18,846 bases of DNA from Pseudomonadota bacterium. GTDB lineage: Bacteria; Bdellovibrionota_B; Oligoflexia; Oligoflexales; CAIYRB01. Positions 3,809 to 18,846 of the stretch are shown here, piece by piece. The stretch spans positions 1 to 18,846 of the forward strand of contig JANOTL010000076.1 in NCBI GenBank assembly GCA_031416315.1. Reading direction: 5' to 3'. Made by a program: the position numbers and the translations under genes. Under the pieces are notes generated by a model. It saw only the letters and a program-made list of their open reading frames with translations, did not search any database and was not told the origin of the DNA. How positions within the stretch are numbered: the stretch's first letter is position 1; each line of letters begins with the position of its first letter.

Positions 3809-3861
3809 ATTTCCTTGCCGTTCCCGAAAGTGAAACTGTGTACAGCAAGGGAGACCAGGCC

Positions 3862-4923
3862 ATGAAAACCATTCAAACCATCTCGCTCTCTTTAATTCTC
3901 GCGGGGCTCGCAGTCGGCTGCGGCCAGGGCACGAAGGACGAAAGCGGCGCGGAAGGCGACGACGACTCTCAAACCGTCGCATCCGTCGGCGGCTCGACCA
4001 CGACGACGACCGACGAATCGAAGCCGGAAGACTCGACGGGCGCAACCGGCAATGTCGCGCTCGGGTTCTCGTCCACCACCCAGACTGCCGGCGCGGCGCT
4101 AGCGGAAGCCGGCGTCGAGATCACCATGGCGAAGCTCAACGTCGCCATGGTGAAGCTCAAGCCGAAGAAGGAAGCGACGGCGAAAGACCAAGACATCGCG
4201 GCGCAAGAGTCCACCGAGGAAAAGGCGCAAGATGCCGCCGTCGCCGAAGCGACGGGCGAGACCGAAGCCGCCGCGCTGGCCGGCAATGACGGCGCCGCCA
4301 ACATGTCCACCGAGGACCGAACTGCGAAGCTCGCAGCCAAGAAGGACGAGCTGAAGAAGAAGGATGCCGATCGTCGCGCGAAGGAAAAGGCGCGCGATCC
4401 GGCCATCCGCTTCGGCGGCCCGTTTGTCTTCGACGCGCTCGCGGGCAAGCTCGAAGGTAGCGCCGAGAGCGCCGCGCTTCCGGACGGCAGCTATCGCCGC
4501 ATCGAGTTCAAGGTTCGCCGCACCTTCGACGTCGTCGAGAGCGACCCCTTGTTCGGGAACGCGGCCATCGTGAAGGGTACCTTCACGAAAGACGGCGCGG
4601 CCGTGCCATTCACGATCGAGATCCGCAACGCGATGAACTTCAGCCTGGCGGGCGAGAAAGCCTTGGCCATCGTACCGTCGGCCGACACGAGTCTCGGCCT
4701 GTCGTTCGACCTTACGAAATGGTTGGAAGGCGTCGACTTCAGCGTCGCAGAGATCGACACCGCGAGCGGCGAGGTGCTGATCGACGTGCAGCACAACCAG
4801 ACGTTGCTGAAGAAGGTGCGCTCGAACATGAAGACCGCCAGCCGCTTCGGCAAAGACGCGGACGGCGACGGCAAGATCGCGACTGACGAGGCCGCTGGCG
4901 AAGGTCAGGCCACGGCGGAGTAA
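3862..4923 (+). CDS. Putative lipoprotein, DUF4382-like beta domain with charged insertion and C-terminal EF-hand-like loop (353 aa); paralog A
   Basis: SD AAGGGAG then ATG 3862; signal peptide ending LAVGC; motifs FGGPFVFDAL, LPDGSYRRIEFK, FDLTKWLEGVDF; DADGDGKIATDE near the C-terminus. DUF4382 similarity is from memory. Confidence 0.85.
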   Translation: MKTIQTISLSLILAGLAVGCGQGTKDESGAEGDDDSQTVASVGGSTTTTTDESKPEDSTGATGNVALGFSSTTQTAGAALAEAGVEITMAKLNVAMVKLKPKKEATAKDQDIAAQESTEEKAQDAAVAEATGETEAAALAGNDGAANMSTEDRTAKLAAKKDELKKKDADRRAKEKARDPAIRFGGPFVFDALAGKLEGSAESAALPDGSYRRIEFKVRRTFDVVESDPLFGNAAIVKGTFTKDGAAVPFTIEIRNAMNFSLAGEKALAIVPSADTSLGLSFDLTKWLEGVDFSVAEIDTASGEVLIDVQHNQTLLKKVRSNMKTASRFGKDADGDGKIATDEAAGEGQATAE

Positions 4924-5057: not shown

Positions 5058-6347
<1,290 letters not shown>

Positions 6348-14195: not shown

Positions 14196-14657
14196 CTACT
14201 TCTTGACGTTGAGCGTGCCTTTCATGCCGAGCATGTCCGCGTGTCCGGCCATGAGGCAAATATACGGATAGAATCCGGGCTCCGCCGGACTGAACTCGAC
14301 GGTGCCGTCCGCCCCCGGCGGTAGCGCTTTCGTCATCGCCAGAACCGATTTGTGGGAGCGCAGCTTTTCGATGTCGTAGCTGTTCGCCTGGAGCTCTTTA
14401 ATGACCTCGTCCAAGGAGCCCGGCTTCAGAATGGCGACGTTATGAAGGATCTCGGAGCCTTTTTCAGCTTCGTTGATGAACTTGATCGCGACTCTTTTAC
14501 CAAACGGCACTTGGATAGCGGTTTGATCGAAGGCGATGTCATTACCTTTGGTGCTGAGGCGAACGGCGATCGGCGCCCCGCCGCTCGCCCCGGCGGCGAA
14601 AGTCGGCGAAGCGCTCAGAAGCGTCGCCAGGATCAAGGTCGAGAAAACTGCGCGCAT
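14196..14657 (-). CDS. Azurin/auracyanin-like blue copper protein (153 aa)
   Basis: SD AAGGA then ATG 14657; Sec signal ending PTFA; type-1 Cu ligands in HNVAIL and YPYICLMAGHADMLGMKGTL; azurin-like helical flap between them. Confidence 0.9.
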   Translation of the reverse strand: MRAVFSTLILATLLSASPTFAAGASGGAPIAVRLSTKGNDIAFDQTAIQVPFGKRVAIKFINEAEKGSEILHNVAILKPGSLDEVIKELQANSYDIEKLRSHKSVLAMTKALPPGADGTVEFSPAEPGFYPYICLMAGHADMLGMKGTLNVKK

Positions 14658-14678
14658 TTGTCGTCCTTTCCGCATGTT

Positions 14679-14996
14679 CTACTTGACCACCACTTTCAGC
14701 TTCATCTTGGGATGAATGGCGCAGCGCACCTCGAACGCGCCGGCCTTGTCGAACTTTTGGGACGACTCGGCGCCTTGCTTCTGGATGCCGAGGTTGAACT
14801 TCGCGCCCTCAGTCGAGGAGAAGACGTTGTGCGAGGTGTCGTCCTCATTCTTGAAGAGCACGGTGTCGCCGACAGCCAGCGTGATCTCCTCGGCGGTGAA
14901 TTGTTTCGCCTTCTGAGAAACGATATGTTCCTTCGCGAAGGCGCTGCCCGCGGGCAAAAGGCCAAGCCCGAAGGCGACGATCTGAGTCATTCTCAT
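14679..14996 (-). CDS. Amicyanin/plastocyanin-like cupredoxin (105 aa)
   Basis: SD AAGGAG then ATG 14996; signal ending SAFA; VGDTVLFKNED..HNV and short ligand loop C-A-I-H-P-K-M (CxxHPxM, amicyanin-type). Confidence 0.9.
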   Translation of the reverse strand: MRMTQIVAFGLGLLPAGSAFAKEHIVSQKAKQFTAEEITLAVGDTVLFKNEDDTSHNVFSSTEGAKFNLGIQKQGAESSQKFDKAGAFEVRCAIHPKMKLKVVVK

Positions 14997-15013
14997 GGGG
15001 AAGCTCCTTTGCA

Positions 15014-16039
15014 TTATCGCGGTAGCATTGGGATGACGACGGGCTTGTCGCGGCTCGTGAGCGTCCGGAGAAACGCCACCAGGTCCGCTTTCTCTTCGCC
15101 GCTCAGGCCTAAAGGTTTCACGTGCTCGGAAACGGTGGGTCGCCGCTGCTTGCCGCCTTTGTCGTAGAAGTCGACGACTTCCTCGAGCGTTTTCTCCGAG
15201 CCGTCGTGCATGTAAGGCGCGCGGTGGTCGACGTTGCGCAGAGTCGGCGTCTTGAACGCGCCCTGAAGCACCTCGAAGTCGGGCATAATCTTGCCCCGTC
15301 CGATGTCGTCGCCCGCGACGCCGATGTCGTGGAAGCTGTCGTCGGTAAACCGCCAACCGCTATGACACTGTGAGCATAGCGCCTTCTCGTTGAAGAGCAC
15401 GAAGCCGCGCTTTGCGTTTTCGGTGACGGCCTTGGCATCACCCTTCACCCAACGGTCGAAAGGCGCCTCGCCCGAGACCACGGTGCGCTCGAAGGTCGCG
15501 ATCGCCTTGGCGATGGTCGACTTGTTGATGCCCTCGCCCGGGTAAGCCTTGTCGAAGAGCGGCTTGTACGACGACATACCCTCAAGCTTGCCGATCATCT
15601 GATCGAGCGGCAGATTCATCTCGCCTTCGGCCTCGACGGGCCCGAGCGCCTGCGCCTCCAACGAGTCGGCCCGGCCGTCCCACATCATCAGCTCGCCCCA
15701 AGCGAGATTGAGAATCGTAGGCGTGCGCCGGCCAAGCACCTTCATTCCGTGGCCGAGTCCTTTGGGAAGGCCGTCGCCCCACGAGAGGGCCGGATTGTGA
15801 CAGGTCGCGCACGAGATCCAGTCGGAGCCGGAGAGCCGCGGATCGAAAAAGAGCGTACGACCGAGGTCCTCGCGCGCTTGGGAATGGAGGTTGTCCTTCG
15901 GGAAAGGGATGTCCTTCGGCCGCTTGTAAGAGCTCAGATAGGCTTTCGGCTCGGCCGCGAAGGCGGCGGGCTCTGATGCCTCGAGGGCGAAGGACACGGC
16001 AATTAGTAGCACACCAATCCTGGCTACTCCGCTGACCAC
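15014..16039 (-). CDS. Periplasmic diheme cytochrome c peroxidase/MauG superfamily protein, MauG-type (Tyr-ligated)
   Basis: LGRTLFFDPRLS, CATCH (15797-15811), WDGRA..LEAQALGP..EM, CSQCH (15362-15376), FKTPTLRNV..APYMHDG, LVAFLRTLT. GTG start at 16039 after GGAGG gives a signal peptide ending AAFA. Confidence 0.92.
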   Translation of the reverse strand: MVSGVARIGVLLIAVSFALEASEPAAFAAEPKAYLSSYKRPKDIPFPKDNLHSQAREDLGRTLFFDPRLSGSDWISCATCHNPALSWGDGLPKGLGHGMKVLGRRTPTILNLAWGELMMWDGRADSLEAQALGPVEAEGEMNLPLDQMIGKLEGMSSYKPLFDKAYPGEGINKSTIAKAIATFERTVVSGEAPFDRWVKGDAKAVTENAKRGFVLFNEKALCSQCHSGWRFTDDSFHDIGVAGDDIGRGKIMPDFEVLQGAFKTPTLRNVDHRAPYMHDGSEKTLEEVVDFYDKGGKQRRPTVSEHVKPLGLSGEEKADLVAFLRTLTSRDKPVVIPMLPR

Positions 16040-16285
16040 ACTGCCTCCAACAAAGCGAAAGGAAACCAATCGAGCGCGTCAGCGCGCATGTCTCGCGAGG
16101 TCTATCGTCTGCATTTCCGGGGATTCATACTGATAGGATACTATAGACAGCAAGTCGCAGTAAAACGCCGGTATCCTCGACAAATTCGGGCGGCGAAGCC
16201 GCCTAGCGCCGCAAAGCTTTCACGGCTTCTACGGCATTTTTTGGCTACAAAGCAGACGCCGTTCGGGCGTCGCATAAGGAGCGCC

Positions 16286-18406
16286 ATGGCGTCCCGCCAA
16301 CGCAAAGTCGCACGAAGTCTCGCCCAAAAATTCTACCTGTTGCTGGTCGTTCCGCTGATCTTGATCTCGGGCCTCGTGACGTGGATCACCTACCGGGGAC
16401 TCGATTCAAACGCCGCGGAATTGGCCACCGCGCTGCGCGTTCAGGGCAAAAGCAACTCCGTGCTCCCGCTTCTTCTGACGCAAGACGACACATCGAAGTC
16501 GCTGCTGATCGACCCTTCCAAGCTCGCGCTCTTCTCGGACAAGAAGATCACCGCCTACGACGAGCACAAGAAACTCCTTACCGAGCTCAGCAGCGAGGCC
16601 ACCGATCCCGCGATGCAGGCGTTGATCTCCGAGCTTGCGGCTCTCGACGAAACAAAGCTTCGCCCACTCGATACGCAGATCCTAGAGCTACTCTTCGAAG
16701 ACGTCGACAAGGCCAGAGCGCTCTATTTTACCGACTACGAACCCCACCGCCTCGAGTATGAAAAAAAGATCCGCGAGCTCGCCCGGCTGGGCGCCGAGCA
16801 CGCGGAAGAAGCTCGCATCGATATGACGAAAAAGAACTCACGCTCGCTTCTCTTGATCGCGCTCGCCCTCGTCCTCGGCATCGCGGTGATCGCGACGACG
16901 ATCACCATCCTGTCACGTCAGATCGAACGCTCCAACGACAACACCAAAAGCCTGCTCGCCGTCCTCGGAGAGGGCCTGTTCTTCTTCGGCCGCGACGGCG
17001 TGATCGCGCCGGAACGGTCGCAGGCGCTCGGCAAGATCATCCCGGGAGCCGATCACGTCGACACCCTGCAGCAGTTCGTCGGCAAATATTCCGCGACGAG
17101 CGAAGACAACGTCAAAACGTGTCTCAAGCTCCTTTGGAACGTCGATGGTGACGACTTTCTCAGCGACTTCGACTCGACCATAACTTTCTTGCCGAAGTCG
17201 CTAGTTATCGACGGATCGCGCATCGTCGAGCTCGAGTACCGCCCGCTATACGGTAGGGACAAGCAGCTCGAGAAGGTCGTGGTCGTCGCCGCCGACGTCA
17301 CGGAGAAGCGCAAGAACGAGCGAGAGGCCGTGGTCCAGGCCGAACGTGTGCGCAAGATCTCGCGGGTCGCGGCGGGGCTCGATAGCTACCTCAGCTTCTT
17401 CGACGAGGCGATCGGCCTCTTCCGCCGCGCCGATGGGCTCGTTGGCGGCAAGGCGAAGGGCGCCTCCGACCTCGCTCAGCTTCGCCGCGATCTGCATACC
17501 CTGAAAGGGTCGATCGGTACCTTCGAGTTCACGAGCCTGGCGCACGAGATTCACGAGATCGAGACTCTGCTCGACGAAGAAGGACCGTCGAGCGCCCGCC
17601 TCTCGGCGCACTGGGACCGGATCAAGGACCAGTGGAAATTCGAGACCAGCGACATCGAAACCGTGCTGCGGCTCAAGGAAAGTCAGGGCAAAGTCACTCT
17701 GACCAAGAGCAAGTTCGACACTCTCATCGCTCACGCACAAGCTACCAGCGACGACAAACTCGCCGGCCTCCTAAAGGCCAGTCTGCGAGTGACGGTGAAG
17801 GACGCCTTCGCAAAGTATAAGGCCTACCTCGAAAAGCTCACCGATCGCCAAAACGAGAAGCAGATTCGCCTCGCCTACGTCGCCGATAGTGACGAGATTT
17901 CCCACGCGGAGATGCAGGGTCTCGACCCGGCATTCGTGCACATCGTCCGCAATTGCCTCGACCACGGCATCGAAGCCAGCGACGTTCGGCGTAAGGCTCA
18001 CAAGGCGGCGGCGGGAACCATACAAATCGCCTGCTACCGGAAAAGTGACGGCTGGCTGCACTTCGTGATCAAAGACGATGGCCAGGGCGTCGACGGCGAC
18101 AAGCTGGCTCAGAAGGCCGTGCTCGGCGGCCTTTGGACGGCGGAAAAAGCCGCCGCGGCCAGTTACCAGGAGAAGATCGAGCTCGTCTTCATCCCGAACC
18201 TGTCTTCGAAAGACGAAGTGAGCGAGATCTCCGGGCGCGGCGTCGGCATGGACGCGGTCAAGACGCTCGTCGAGGAGTTGGGCGGAAAGATTACAATTTT
18301 TTCGCAGCCGGGCCAGGGGACGCAGTTCGAGCTCGACGTGCCACCGATCCCGGCCTCGATCCCGGTCGCTTACGCCAGCAAGGCGCATCTGGCATCCATC
18401 AGATAG
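16286..18406 (+). CDS. Membrane-bound CheA-like histidine kinase (TM - periplasmic helical sensor - TM - PAS-like - HPt - HATPase; 706 aa)
   Basis: SD AAGGAG then ATG 16286; two TM helices; HPt motif RDLHTLKG; CheA-type catalytic boxes HIVRNCLDHGIE, DDGQG, FIPNLSS, SGRGVGMD, GQGTQF; ends without a CheW-like domain. Confidence 0.9.
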   Translation: MASRQRKVARSLAQKFYLLLVVPLILISGLVTWITYRGLDSNAAELATALRVQGKSNSVLPLLLTQDDTSKSLLIDPSKLALFSDKKITAYDEHKKLLTELSSEATDPAMQALISELAALDETKLRPLDTQILELLFEDVDKARALYFTDYEPHRLEYEKKIRELARLGAEHAEEARIDMTKKNSRSLLLIALALVLGIAVIATTITILSRQIERSNDNTKSLLAVLGEGLFFFGRDGVIAPERSQALGKIIPGADHVDTLQQFVGKYSATSEDNVKTCLKLLWNVDGDDFLSDFDSTITFLPKSLVIDGSRIVELEYRPLYGRDKQLEKVVVVAADVTEKRKNEREAVVQAERVRKISRVAAGLDSYLSFFDEAIGLFRRADGLVGGKAKGASDLAQLRRDLHTLKGSIGTFEFTSLAHEIHEIETLLDEEGPSSARLSAHWDRIKDQWKFETSDIETVLRLKESQGKVTLTKSKFDTLIAHAQATSDDKLAGLLKASLRVTVKDAFAKYKAYLEKLTDRQNEKQIRLAYVADSDEISHAEMQGLDPAFVHIVRNCLDHGIEASDVRRKAHKAAAGTIQIACYRKSDGWLHFVIKDDGQGVDGDKLAQKAVLGGLWTAEKAAAASYQEKIELVFIPNLSSKDEVSEISGRGVGMDAVKTLVEELGGKITIFSQPGQGTQFELDVPPIPASIPVAYASKAHLASIR

Positions 18407-18451
18407 GTCCAGCGCCAGGGCTTGCGGACTTTCACCGCCCCCCCCCTTAGA

Positions 18452-18484
18452 CTCCGGCATTCATCAGAAGCCTCGATGCCGGAG
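18452..18484. other. 9-bp inverted repeat downstream of the kinase gene
   Basis: ctccggcat (18452-18460) and atgccggag (18476-18484), 15-nt loop, no U-tract. Confidence 0.35.
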
Positions 18485-18557
18485 CATTCATGAAACTGGT
18501 CCCGGTTTTTACGTCCTTCTGGGCCTTGTTCGGTGCCCAGTCCCTAATCATGGCGTG

Positions 18558-18589
18558 AAAAGGGCTCCCAGCAATAAATGCGGGGAGCC
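18558..18589 (-). terminator. Rho-independent terminator for the minus-strand gene entering from the right edge
   Basis: Minus strand reads ggctccc-c-gca-tttat-tgc-t-gggagcc-c-tttt, starting 23 nt after the TAA at 18613-18615. Confidence 0.65.
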
Positions 18590-18612
18590 TCTTTCATCGG
18601 CGTGGGGTCGTG

Positions 18613-18846
18613 TTACGGACGGGTCGGTTGTTGCTGTTGCTGTTGCTGCTCCTGGCCTTCCTCGCCGTCGCAGCAGGCGCAGGCTTCACAGGTGCAGCCG
18701 TCTTCACCGCAGCAGCCATCGGTCGGGCAGGTGCCGCCTTCACCGCAGCAGCCGCCTTCACCGCAGCAGCCGCCTTCACCGCAGCAGCCGCCTTCACCGC
18801 AGCAGCCGCCTTCACCGCAGCAGCCGCCTTCACCGCAGCAGCCGCC
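18613..18846 (-). CDS. Cys-rich, metallothionein-like tandem-repeat protein with polyQ tail, 3' part; 5' end outside window
   Basis: Frame starting at 18846 reads (GGCCGE)x6-GGTCPTDGCCGEDGCTCEACACCDGEEGQEQQQQQQQPTRP*: 77 aa, 20 Cys, codons typical of this window (GGC, TGC, GAC, ACC, CAG), followed by a terminator. Not in the ORF track because there is no start codon inside the window. Confidence 0.75.
   Translation of the reverse strand, partial: GGCCGEGGCCGEGGCCGEGGCCGEGGCCGEGGCCGEGGTCPTDGCCGEDGCTCEACACCDGEEGQEQQQQQQQPTRP
18733..18846. repeat. Perfect 18-nt tandem repeat (ttcaccgcagcagccgcc) x6 plus a partial copy, running off the window edge
   Basis: Six exact units at 18739-18846 plus gccgcc at 18733-18738; a degenerate unit at about 18703-18720. 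Confidence 0.97.

Follow-up and report, generated by a model that had tools for sequence, protein, structure and literature searches.

The cysteine-rich open frame at the end of the window, by which we mean the whole 18,846-nucleotide stretch that was analysed and which is the entire contig C76 of a 6.36-Mb assembly in 226 contigs, very likely belongs to a bacterial gene that stands alone and was split by an assembly break, the frame being its back half. Judged from its sequence, the gene appears to be real, and its product looks by composition like a metallothionein-like metal binder that stands outside every family tested. That this product is an exported, repeat-expanded metallothionein-like metal scavenger is the best explanation we can offer, and we regard the chances for and against it as roughly balanced.

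The two putative halves of the gene and their surroundings

Translated on the minus strand from position 18846, the frame gives six GGCCGE units and, after them, a Cys module of 24 residues without repeats; a brief acidic stretch and seven Gln lead on to the stop at 18613–18615. This agrees with what the preliminary description of this DNA had proposed. Its count of 20 Cys in the first 60 residues, with no aromatic or large aliphatic residue, likewise survives recounting, which gives 20 Cys within the first 59 residues and not one Phe, Trp, Tyr, Leu, Ile, Val or Met. The array at the contig end is perfect over 114 nt with a period of 18 (TRF), and the +1 frame, in which the repeat reads VKAAAA, is likewise open across it. 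The features of the gene are as follows.

18613..18846, minus strand: 3′ half of the gene, comprising 77 codons and the stop; the other half is on contig C95, beyond the window
G000:C95:59786-60166 (locus L001:11620-12000), plus strand, outside the window: 5′ half of the gene
18733..18846, minus strand: perfect 18-nt tandem array encoding (GGCCGE)n, truncated at the contig end; it resumes at the end of C95, where 136 nt of array are perfect, for at least 7 units overall
18670..18738, minus strand: non-repetitive Cys module with 8 Cys as CP, CC, CxC and CxxC; its first ten residues are the third copy of an xGTCPxDGCC module, of which two are on C95
18616..18666, minus strand: C-terminal tail, acidic and then Gln-rich, with the seven Gln at 18628-18648 in mixed CAG/CAA codons
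18556..18596, minus strand: strong hairpin 3′ of the stop, A-rich before and with four U after, from a fold of the 68 nt that follow the stop

Elsewhere in the 226-contig genome the 18-nt repeat is found in one place only, the 3′ end of C95, and both sites are contig ends. Followed backwards on C95, the Cys frame takes in two xGTCPxDGCC modules, five consecutive Cys and a His/Asp/Ala linker that contains 7 His. Its ATG is at C95:59786; GGAGGT lies 7 nt before this start, and the preceding gene is 460 nt away. The N-terminus and signal peptide that the preliminary description had proposed to seek upstream are supplied by this contig end, which carries a ribosome-binding site, the ATG, a predicted Sec-type signal, the linker and additional Cys modules. 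The ends of C95 and C76 overlap exactly at 12, 30, 48, 66, 84 and 102 nt, every one of these in frame, and it is from such unique, in-frame overlapping ends that we infer the join. The shortest join gives 170 aa with 7 GGCCGE units, 31 Cys, 7 His, 28 Asp/Glu and 4 Lys/Arg, including a 91-residue core that is 34% Cys; the joined product would hence have at least 170 aa, at least 31 Cys and at least 7 units, and the whole product about 170–190 aa, a size at odds with the earlier suggestion that the stretch might be the tail of a larger protein.

Considering that 9 of the 452 contig ends (7 besides those of C95 and C76) stop in perfect tandem repeats of at least 60 nt, two further apparent pairs among them, the break within the array is an ordinary failure of the assembler. 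Further pairs of contig ends that lie in tandem repeats of the same period, and that probably join, are the 5′ end of C69 with the 3′ end of C119 and the 5′ end of C199 with the 3′ end of C201 (15 and 7 nt). No read spans the array, nor does any contig of sequencing run X1, and runs X2, X3 and X5 hold just short scattered pieces. In run X1, from which the assembly may derive, depth reaches 65 in the last bin against 7.7–9.9 on the flank, and the shortest array predicts 51–65; as a rough hint, the array may have some 7–10 units, summed depths not being a copy number. Between the convergent genes, at 18427-18447, there are ten consecutive C, which read as G on the minus strand; the X1 contigs break elsewhere, near 18225-18254.

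Folding of the 68 nt 3′ of the stop gives a hairpin with an energy of −26.7 kcal/mol (z = −6.1), which none of 200 shuffles equalled, and this hairpin is likely a terminator between the Cys-repeat gene and the convergent CheA-like gene (16088-18406, plus strand). The terminator that had been claimed here is upheld as a structure; a consensus scan of 18300-18846, however, made no call, because only four U follow the hairpin.

The Cys-repeat gene, likely a single-gene unit, lies between a methyltransferase-domain gene upstream and the CheA-like gene downstream, with no metal-resistance context. Outside this unit, an iron/thiamine-type ABC transporter is encoded 3 kb upstream, and two cupredoxins and a MauG-like gene lie 2.5–4.6 kb downstream. 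The latter occupy 14196-16069 (minus strand), where a MauG-like di-haem peroxidase gene is followed by amicyanin-like and azurin-like cupredoxin genes; the first cupredoxin probably starts later than its listed open reading frame. Elsewhere in the window, 3838-4923 and 5058-6347 (plus strand) encode two paralogous lipoproteins in tandem; neither belongs to a Pfam family, both have long linkers rich in acidic residues and Lys, and the second carries a TQ dipeptide repeat. About 100 nt upstream of the Cys-repeat gene there is a palindrome with 8-bp arms, which is not significant (13 of 200 shuffles reach it). It is unique in the genome at 0–1 mismatch, and the 25 loci that it returned from relatives, mostly inside genes, have no downstream function in common that would mark a regulon. 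No sigma-70 promoter was called for the gene, and Rfam gave no match on either flank. Neither the CheA-like neighbour, sought in 11 family genomes at E <= 1e-60, nor two upstream genes, sought in 5 close genomes, were found.

Coding frame and predicted export

A 3-periodic Markov model trained on 1873 long open reading frames of the same genome prefers the Cys frame over the VKAAAA frame in both non-repeat parts (−314 vs −334 and −156 vs −165), whereas inside the perfect repeat it slightly favours the VKAAAA phase (−65.9 vs −68.7). The fit to local codon usage noted earlier is thus borne out in the non-repeat parts and fails within the repeat, which by itself cannot settle the frame. The three diverged 10-codon modules are more telling: 10 of their 30 columns vary, 7 of these 10 at third positions (binomial p = 0.02), and the changed codons, counted over three non-independent module pairs, show synonymous-to-non-synonymous ratios of 12 : 5 (Cys frame), 1 : 15 (+1) and 9 : 5 (mirror antisense). 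The preliminary description had named as fatal a stop and no start upstream in the Cys frame while the VKAAAA frame continued into a real protein. The Cys frame does have a start; the +1 frame meets a stop at C95:59787, and no ribosome-binding motif precedes any of the 14 starts possible in it. Together, the start, the ribosome-binding site and the silent divergence show, at the level of the DNA, that the Cys frame is the coding frame, as had been claimed. The strand assignment rests on the start site and the signal, because the mirror antisense frame is itself mostly silent (9 : 5) and close in Markov score, being better by 4.8 in the linker region.

Could the Cys frame nevertheless be a shadow, the true product being rich in Ala and Lys (VKAAAA), or could the contig ends have been wrongly paired? 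We hold this to be very improbable. The same DNA pattern was collected from at least 119 metagenome and at least 120 viral loci, 79 of them with only about 300 nt of flank, and a start plus signal appears in the Cys frame for only 4 of these at least 239 loci under a crude filter for ATG and hydrophobic signal; the metagenome loci (at least 119), which were also read by eye, are mostly shadows of Ala/Lys- or Ala/Thr-rich repeats. The +1 frame is, moreover, the open and slightly better-scoring phase of the repeat itself. Against this stand the stop of that frame at C95:59787, its 14 starts devoid of ribosome-binding motifs, its lower Markov score in both non-repeat parts and its 1 : 15 ratio, and C95 and C76 agree in GC and in tetranucleotide profile (r = 0.984).

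The N-terminus of the joined product has a basic start, a hydrophobic core (11-residue mean up to 2.5) and small residues at 21–27, and neither a twin Arg nor a lipobox Cys was found in it. By hydropathy and inspection, a Sec/SPase I signal is predicted, with cleavage near residues 24–27; because of this predicted export signal, a cytosolic metallothionein is unlikely. The mature chain is 22% Cys, carries 28 Asp/Glu vs 2 Lys/Arg and lacks aromatic and large aliphatic residues altogether. AlphaFold models made for each half from its single sequence are of low confidence (pLDDT 57.6 and 61.8) and have almost no regular structure past the signal helix, and fold searches with them gave no match, to a solenoid or any other fold. 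Little regular structure is expected of an apo-thionein, and single-sequence models of any protein also look this way.

Relatives and look-alike families

No Pfam family matches either half at E <= 1, and NCBIfam gave only a UreE score of 13.7 bits, on the His linker, and no bufferin match for either half. PF02069, the SmtA/BmtA family, matches neither the protein nor anything in the genome, the control having matched in Synechococcus, and membership of that family was rejected on this ground. Membership of the bufferin or Buf_EGKCG-oxazolin families was likewise rejected, there being no BufA2 or NCBIfam match, no EGKCG and no linked MNIO gene, the last of which is not decisive alone as unlinked precursors exist. 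Csp1 was set aside for want of a twin Arg, a Pfam match and a helical bundle in the low-confidence models, and Hpn/Hpn-2 because only 7 of 170 residues are His vs 46.7% in Hpn.

As far as the homology searches reach, the protein is an orphan. A phmmer-type search with the N-terminal half found none of 5637 candidates at E <= 0.01. A profile of both halves drew 2 weak matches among 6371, a 90-aa orphan with GGCCGE-like repeats and an FKBP/SlyD-like protein with a GCCGEGG tail. A HMMER search of the whole library, with a profile of 127 positions that ends before the last Cys module and the Gln tail, gave 3 matches at E <= 0.001; each of them reflects composition, the proteins being one with collagen-like repeats, one that is bufferin-like and one that is Cys-rich in a different pattern. 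An exact look-up in the protein collection found neither half, the 2 matches to PDB sequences are by chance, and the Atlas search gave no usable match, its top score of 0.80, for locus L148, being a lead only. As for related genomes, where the preliminary description had suggested that homologues be sought, no orthologue turned up in 130 other genomes of the phylum. The CC-hexamer pattern occurs in none of these 130; 9 of them have weak profile matches, and the 8 inspected together comprise 3 bufferin-like proteins, one unrelated secreted protein and, for the rest, shadow frames. Weak matches among relatives (2 of 60) were rejected as shadows of unrelated repeats. The orthologue is best described as not found rather than absent, the sole genome of the same genus being 82% complete in about 950 contigs and such arrays being easily lost. 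The pattern GTCPxDGCC has 38 matches in species genomes, none homologous, and a stricter pattern has none in metagenomes; no paralogue is present among the 9 of 28 Cys-rich open frames of the genome listed after an Arg filter.

A profile that included the look-alike loci L148, L110 and L116 returned 25 proteins, namely 20 lipoprotein relatives and 5 relatives of L148. L110:270-560 and L116:222-512 (both minus strand) encode lipoproteins with EEGCCK-type hexamers, and the members of this Bacteroidales-type family (P0008-P0022, P0024-P0026, P0029 and P0031) have 68–107 aa, 8–20 Cys and acidic CC/CxxC modules that vary in number; one is named Bacteroidales by NCBI. L148:184-555 (plus strand) encodes a protein of Sec type that combines three EKGCCS hexamers with two longer Cys modules. 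Members of its family (P0023, P0027, P0028, P0030 and P0032) have 103–150 aa and 17–35 Cys, carry a conserved Cys module of 21 residues once or twice and are, by sequence features, strongly metallothionein-like. None of the four look-alikes scanned (L148, P0009, P0027 and P0032) reached a curated NCBIfam cut-off, and Pfam offered nothing better than E = 0.04 for L148, L110 and L116. Compared with the L148 module (CCDGCKxGxCxCxxCxCCxxC), the last Cys module of the window is identical in 12 of 18 columns, a likeness picked post hoc and matched by 71 of 5000 shuffles; three control tails did not rise above their own shuffles. This likeness may have arisen by convergence. The 25 proteins are homologues of the look-alikes rather than demonstrated homologues of the window's protein; the two families, which look unrelated, share its architecture of a signal followed by variable CC hexamers.

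Other Cys-rich frames came to light in these searches. In the viral collection, the open reading frame from position 199 of L297 (plus strand) encodes 102 very Cys-rich residues with a hydrophobic N-terminus and KDVGCC repeats. At L018, L021, L025, L027 and L030, large Cytophagales-type proteins end in a short Cys-rich segment with GTCPxDGCC, the same motif as in the window's module. L109 and L127 have two adjacent short open reading frames, each of which has a compact Cys-rich GCCxDxGCC stretch and, after it, a C-terminal segment that is free of repeats and common to both; these are possibly real paralogous Cys-rich proteins with no signal.

Proposed metal capture and its rivals

As to composition, the earlier proposal of a repeat-expanded, metallothionein-like protein is supported: at least 7 GGCCGE units and 31 Cys in a 91-residue core, arranged as CC, CxC and CxxC within a mature chain free of aromatics, fit the composition of the metallothionein class. 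In the mechanism that we envisage, the chain, a disordered acidic polypeptide in which there are 7 His and at least 31 Cys, would be exported by Sec; it would acquire a fold around soft metal ions such as Cu(I), Zn, Cd or Ni and keep them outside the cytoplasm. Going by known chemistry, the His linker may catch ions quickly and weakly, and tight thiolate sites may be provided by the CC/CxC/CxxC core. Capacity could be set by gain and loss of 18-nt units, a variation seen only in the look-alike families, whose architecture recurs with variable Cys modules (8–20 Cys in the 20 lipoproteins and 17–35 in the 5 Sec-type proteins) and lends support by analogy. According to excerpts of the literature, CC motifs bind Zn(II) and Ni(II) tighter than CH/HC in model peptides that include an EEGCC peptide (PMC10221980), EEGCC occurs twice in Helicobacter Hpn (PMC5312948), and fungal Cu-thioneins reach high capacity through tandem amplification of Cys units (PMC4755600).

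Comparison with known systems brings out what would be new. SmtA/BmtA, MymT and PmtA share with the Cys-repeat protein a small-residue, Cys-rich chain with CC, CxC and CxxC, a mature part lacking aromatics and, likely, multi-metal thiolate binding; the Cys-repeat protein, however, is about three times longer, is built of perfect tandem repeats, is strongly acidic and has a predicted Sec signal. Characterised bacterial metallothioneins are described, in the excerpt available, as rare and small, SmtA having a zinc-finger fold and MymT a mass of 4.9 kDa (PMC7558416), and PmtA is surface-exposed, probably via non-classical secretion (PMC11237414, in excerpt). The fungal Cu-thioneins Cryptococcus CnMT1/2 and Tremella TmMT are similar in gaining capacity by amplification of a tandem Cys unit and in length (122–257 aa; PMC4755600, in part), but they are eukaryotic and use a 7-Cys unit of other sequence, whereas the Cys-repeat protein is bacterial and combines a 2-Cys hexamer with a His linker and an export signal; no homology is claimed. 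Helicobacter Hpn/Hpn-2 and the SlyD tail have a His-rich segment, acidic-Gly-Cys-Cys repeats (PMC5312948) and, in Hpn-2, a Gln-rich end (PMC4671568), both sources in excerpt; yet Hpn is 47% His with two EEGCC, compared with 4% His, ten or more CC and an export signal here, so that the similarity is at motif level only. Bufferins and Buf_EGKCG/oxazolin resemble it in their Sec signal, linker, variable short Cys repeats and proposed copper capture outside the cytoplasm, and differ in that the Cys-repeat protein has no EGKCG, no BufA2 match and no MNIO/DUF2063/DoxX cluster on C95 or C76. Csp1 is exported and Cys-rich with a high proposed Cu(I) capacity, but is a Tat-exported, rigid four-helix bundle (PMC7558416, in excerpt), whereas the Cys-repeat protein has neither twin Arg nor helical core. 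The exported Cys-rich metal binders compared are thus either enzyme-modified (bufferins, oxazolin) or Tat-exported helical bundles (Csp1), and in the open-access literature we found no Sec-exported tandem-repeat bacterial metallothionein, though the supplements of PMC12452194 may list similar precursors.

Tentatively, and with doubts outweighing confidence, one may go further and place the protein in an unrecognised class of exported bacterial metallothioneins, Sec- or lipoprotein-targeted and present in several lineages, with unmodified CC-hexamer arrays whose in-frame repeat number sets capacity; as part of this same tentative reading, the class might have been missed because its arrays break assemblies and are read as Ala/Lys repeats in the adjoining frame. 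If an unmodified Sec-exported thionein does exist, it would show that arrays of free thiols are able to persist in a periplasm with DsbA and to bind metal there, and the protein would offer a simple modular scaffold on which stoichiometry per repeat could be measured directly. There is also a practical blind spot, such genes splitting assemblies and being readily translated in the wrong frame.

The most serious rival, one that the preliminary description had itself allowed for, is that the exported chain is oxidised by DsbA/DsbB and serves as a disulfide cross-linked component of the envelope or matrix, or as a sacrificial redox buffer of thiols and disulfides; any binding of metal would then be incidental. 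It owes its weight to the predicted export and to the presence of DsbA- and DsbB-family genes in the genome (6 DSBA-family matches and one DsbB), an oxidising system that Sec-exported thiols would meet; a Sec-type signal lacking a twin Arg, moreover, implies unfolded, metal-free export. The strict 6-residue Cys period could make a disulfide ladder, and GTCPxDGCC ends large secreted proteins in 5 Cytophagales-type loci of the 38 pattern matches, where the segment likely serves to form disulfides. On the other hand, vicinal CC and five Cys in succession lend themselves poorly to disulfides within one chain and are a typical trait of metal-thiolate proteins, and the His-rich linker and strong net negative charge suit the capture of cations. 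That no solenoid or other fold was predicted or matched is weak evidence against the rival as well, the models being of low confidence. On balance, we consider cross-linking or redox buffering rather unlikely.

Distinctly less probable still is a stand-alone RiPP precursor that would be modified in trans in the cytoplasm by a genomic MNIO (DUF692) to give a thiooxazole-type copper chelator like the bufferins and oxazolin. The predicted Sec signal is a trait of bufferin-type precursors, and the order of signal, linker and short Gly/Glu/Cys repeats recalls the layout of HvfA with its AEGKCGEGKCG repeats (PMC11252979, in excerpt). The genome has two MNIO (PF05114) genes, and sizeable shares of bufferin precursors are unlinked to MNIO genes (PMC12452194, in excerpt). 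Both MNIO genes, however, are on other contigs (C138 and C5), each beside its own small Cys-rich precursor; the BufA2 model matches the precursor on C138 (33 bits, under the cut-off of 60) but neither half of the Cys-repeat protein, whose repeat has CC, no Lys and nothing of EGKCG. Among the functions considered, exported metal scavenging by unmodified thiols remains the reading we prefer.

The bufferin-type clusters of this genome, in which a small secreted Cys-rich precursor is followed by an MNIO gene, lie at G000:C138:67330-69544 and G000:C5:3342-5371. A YceI-like gene, so labelled by eye, precedes the cluster on C5, and similar genes precede clusters in genomes G025, G038 and G068.
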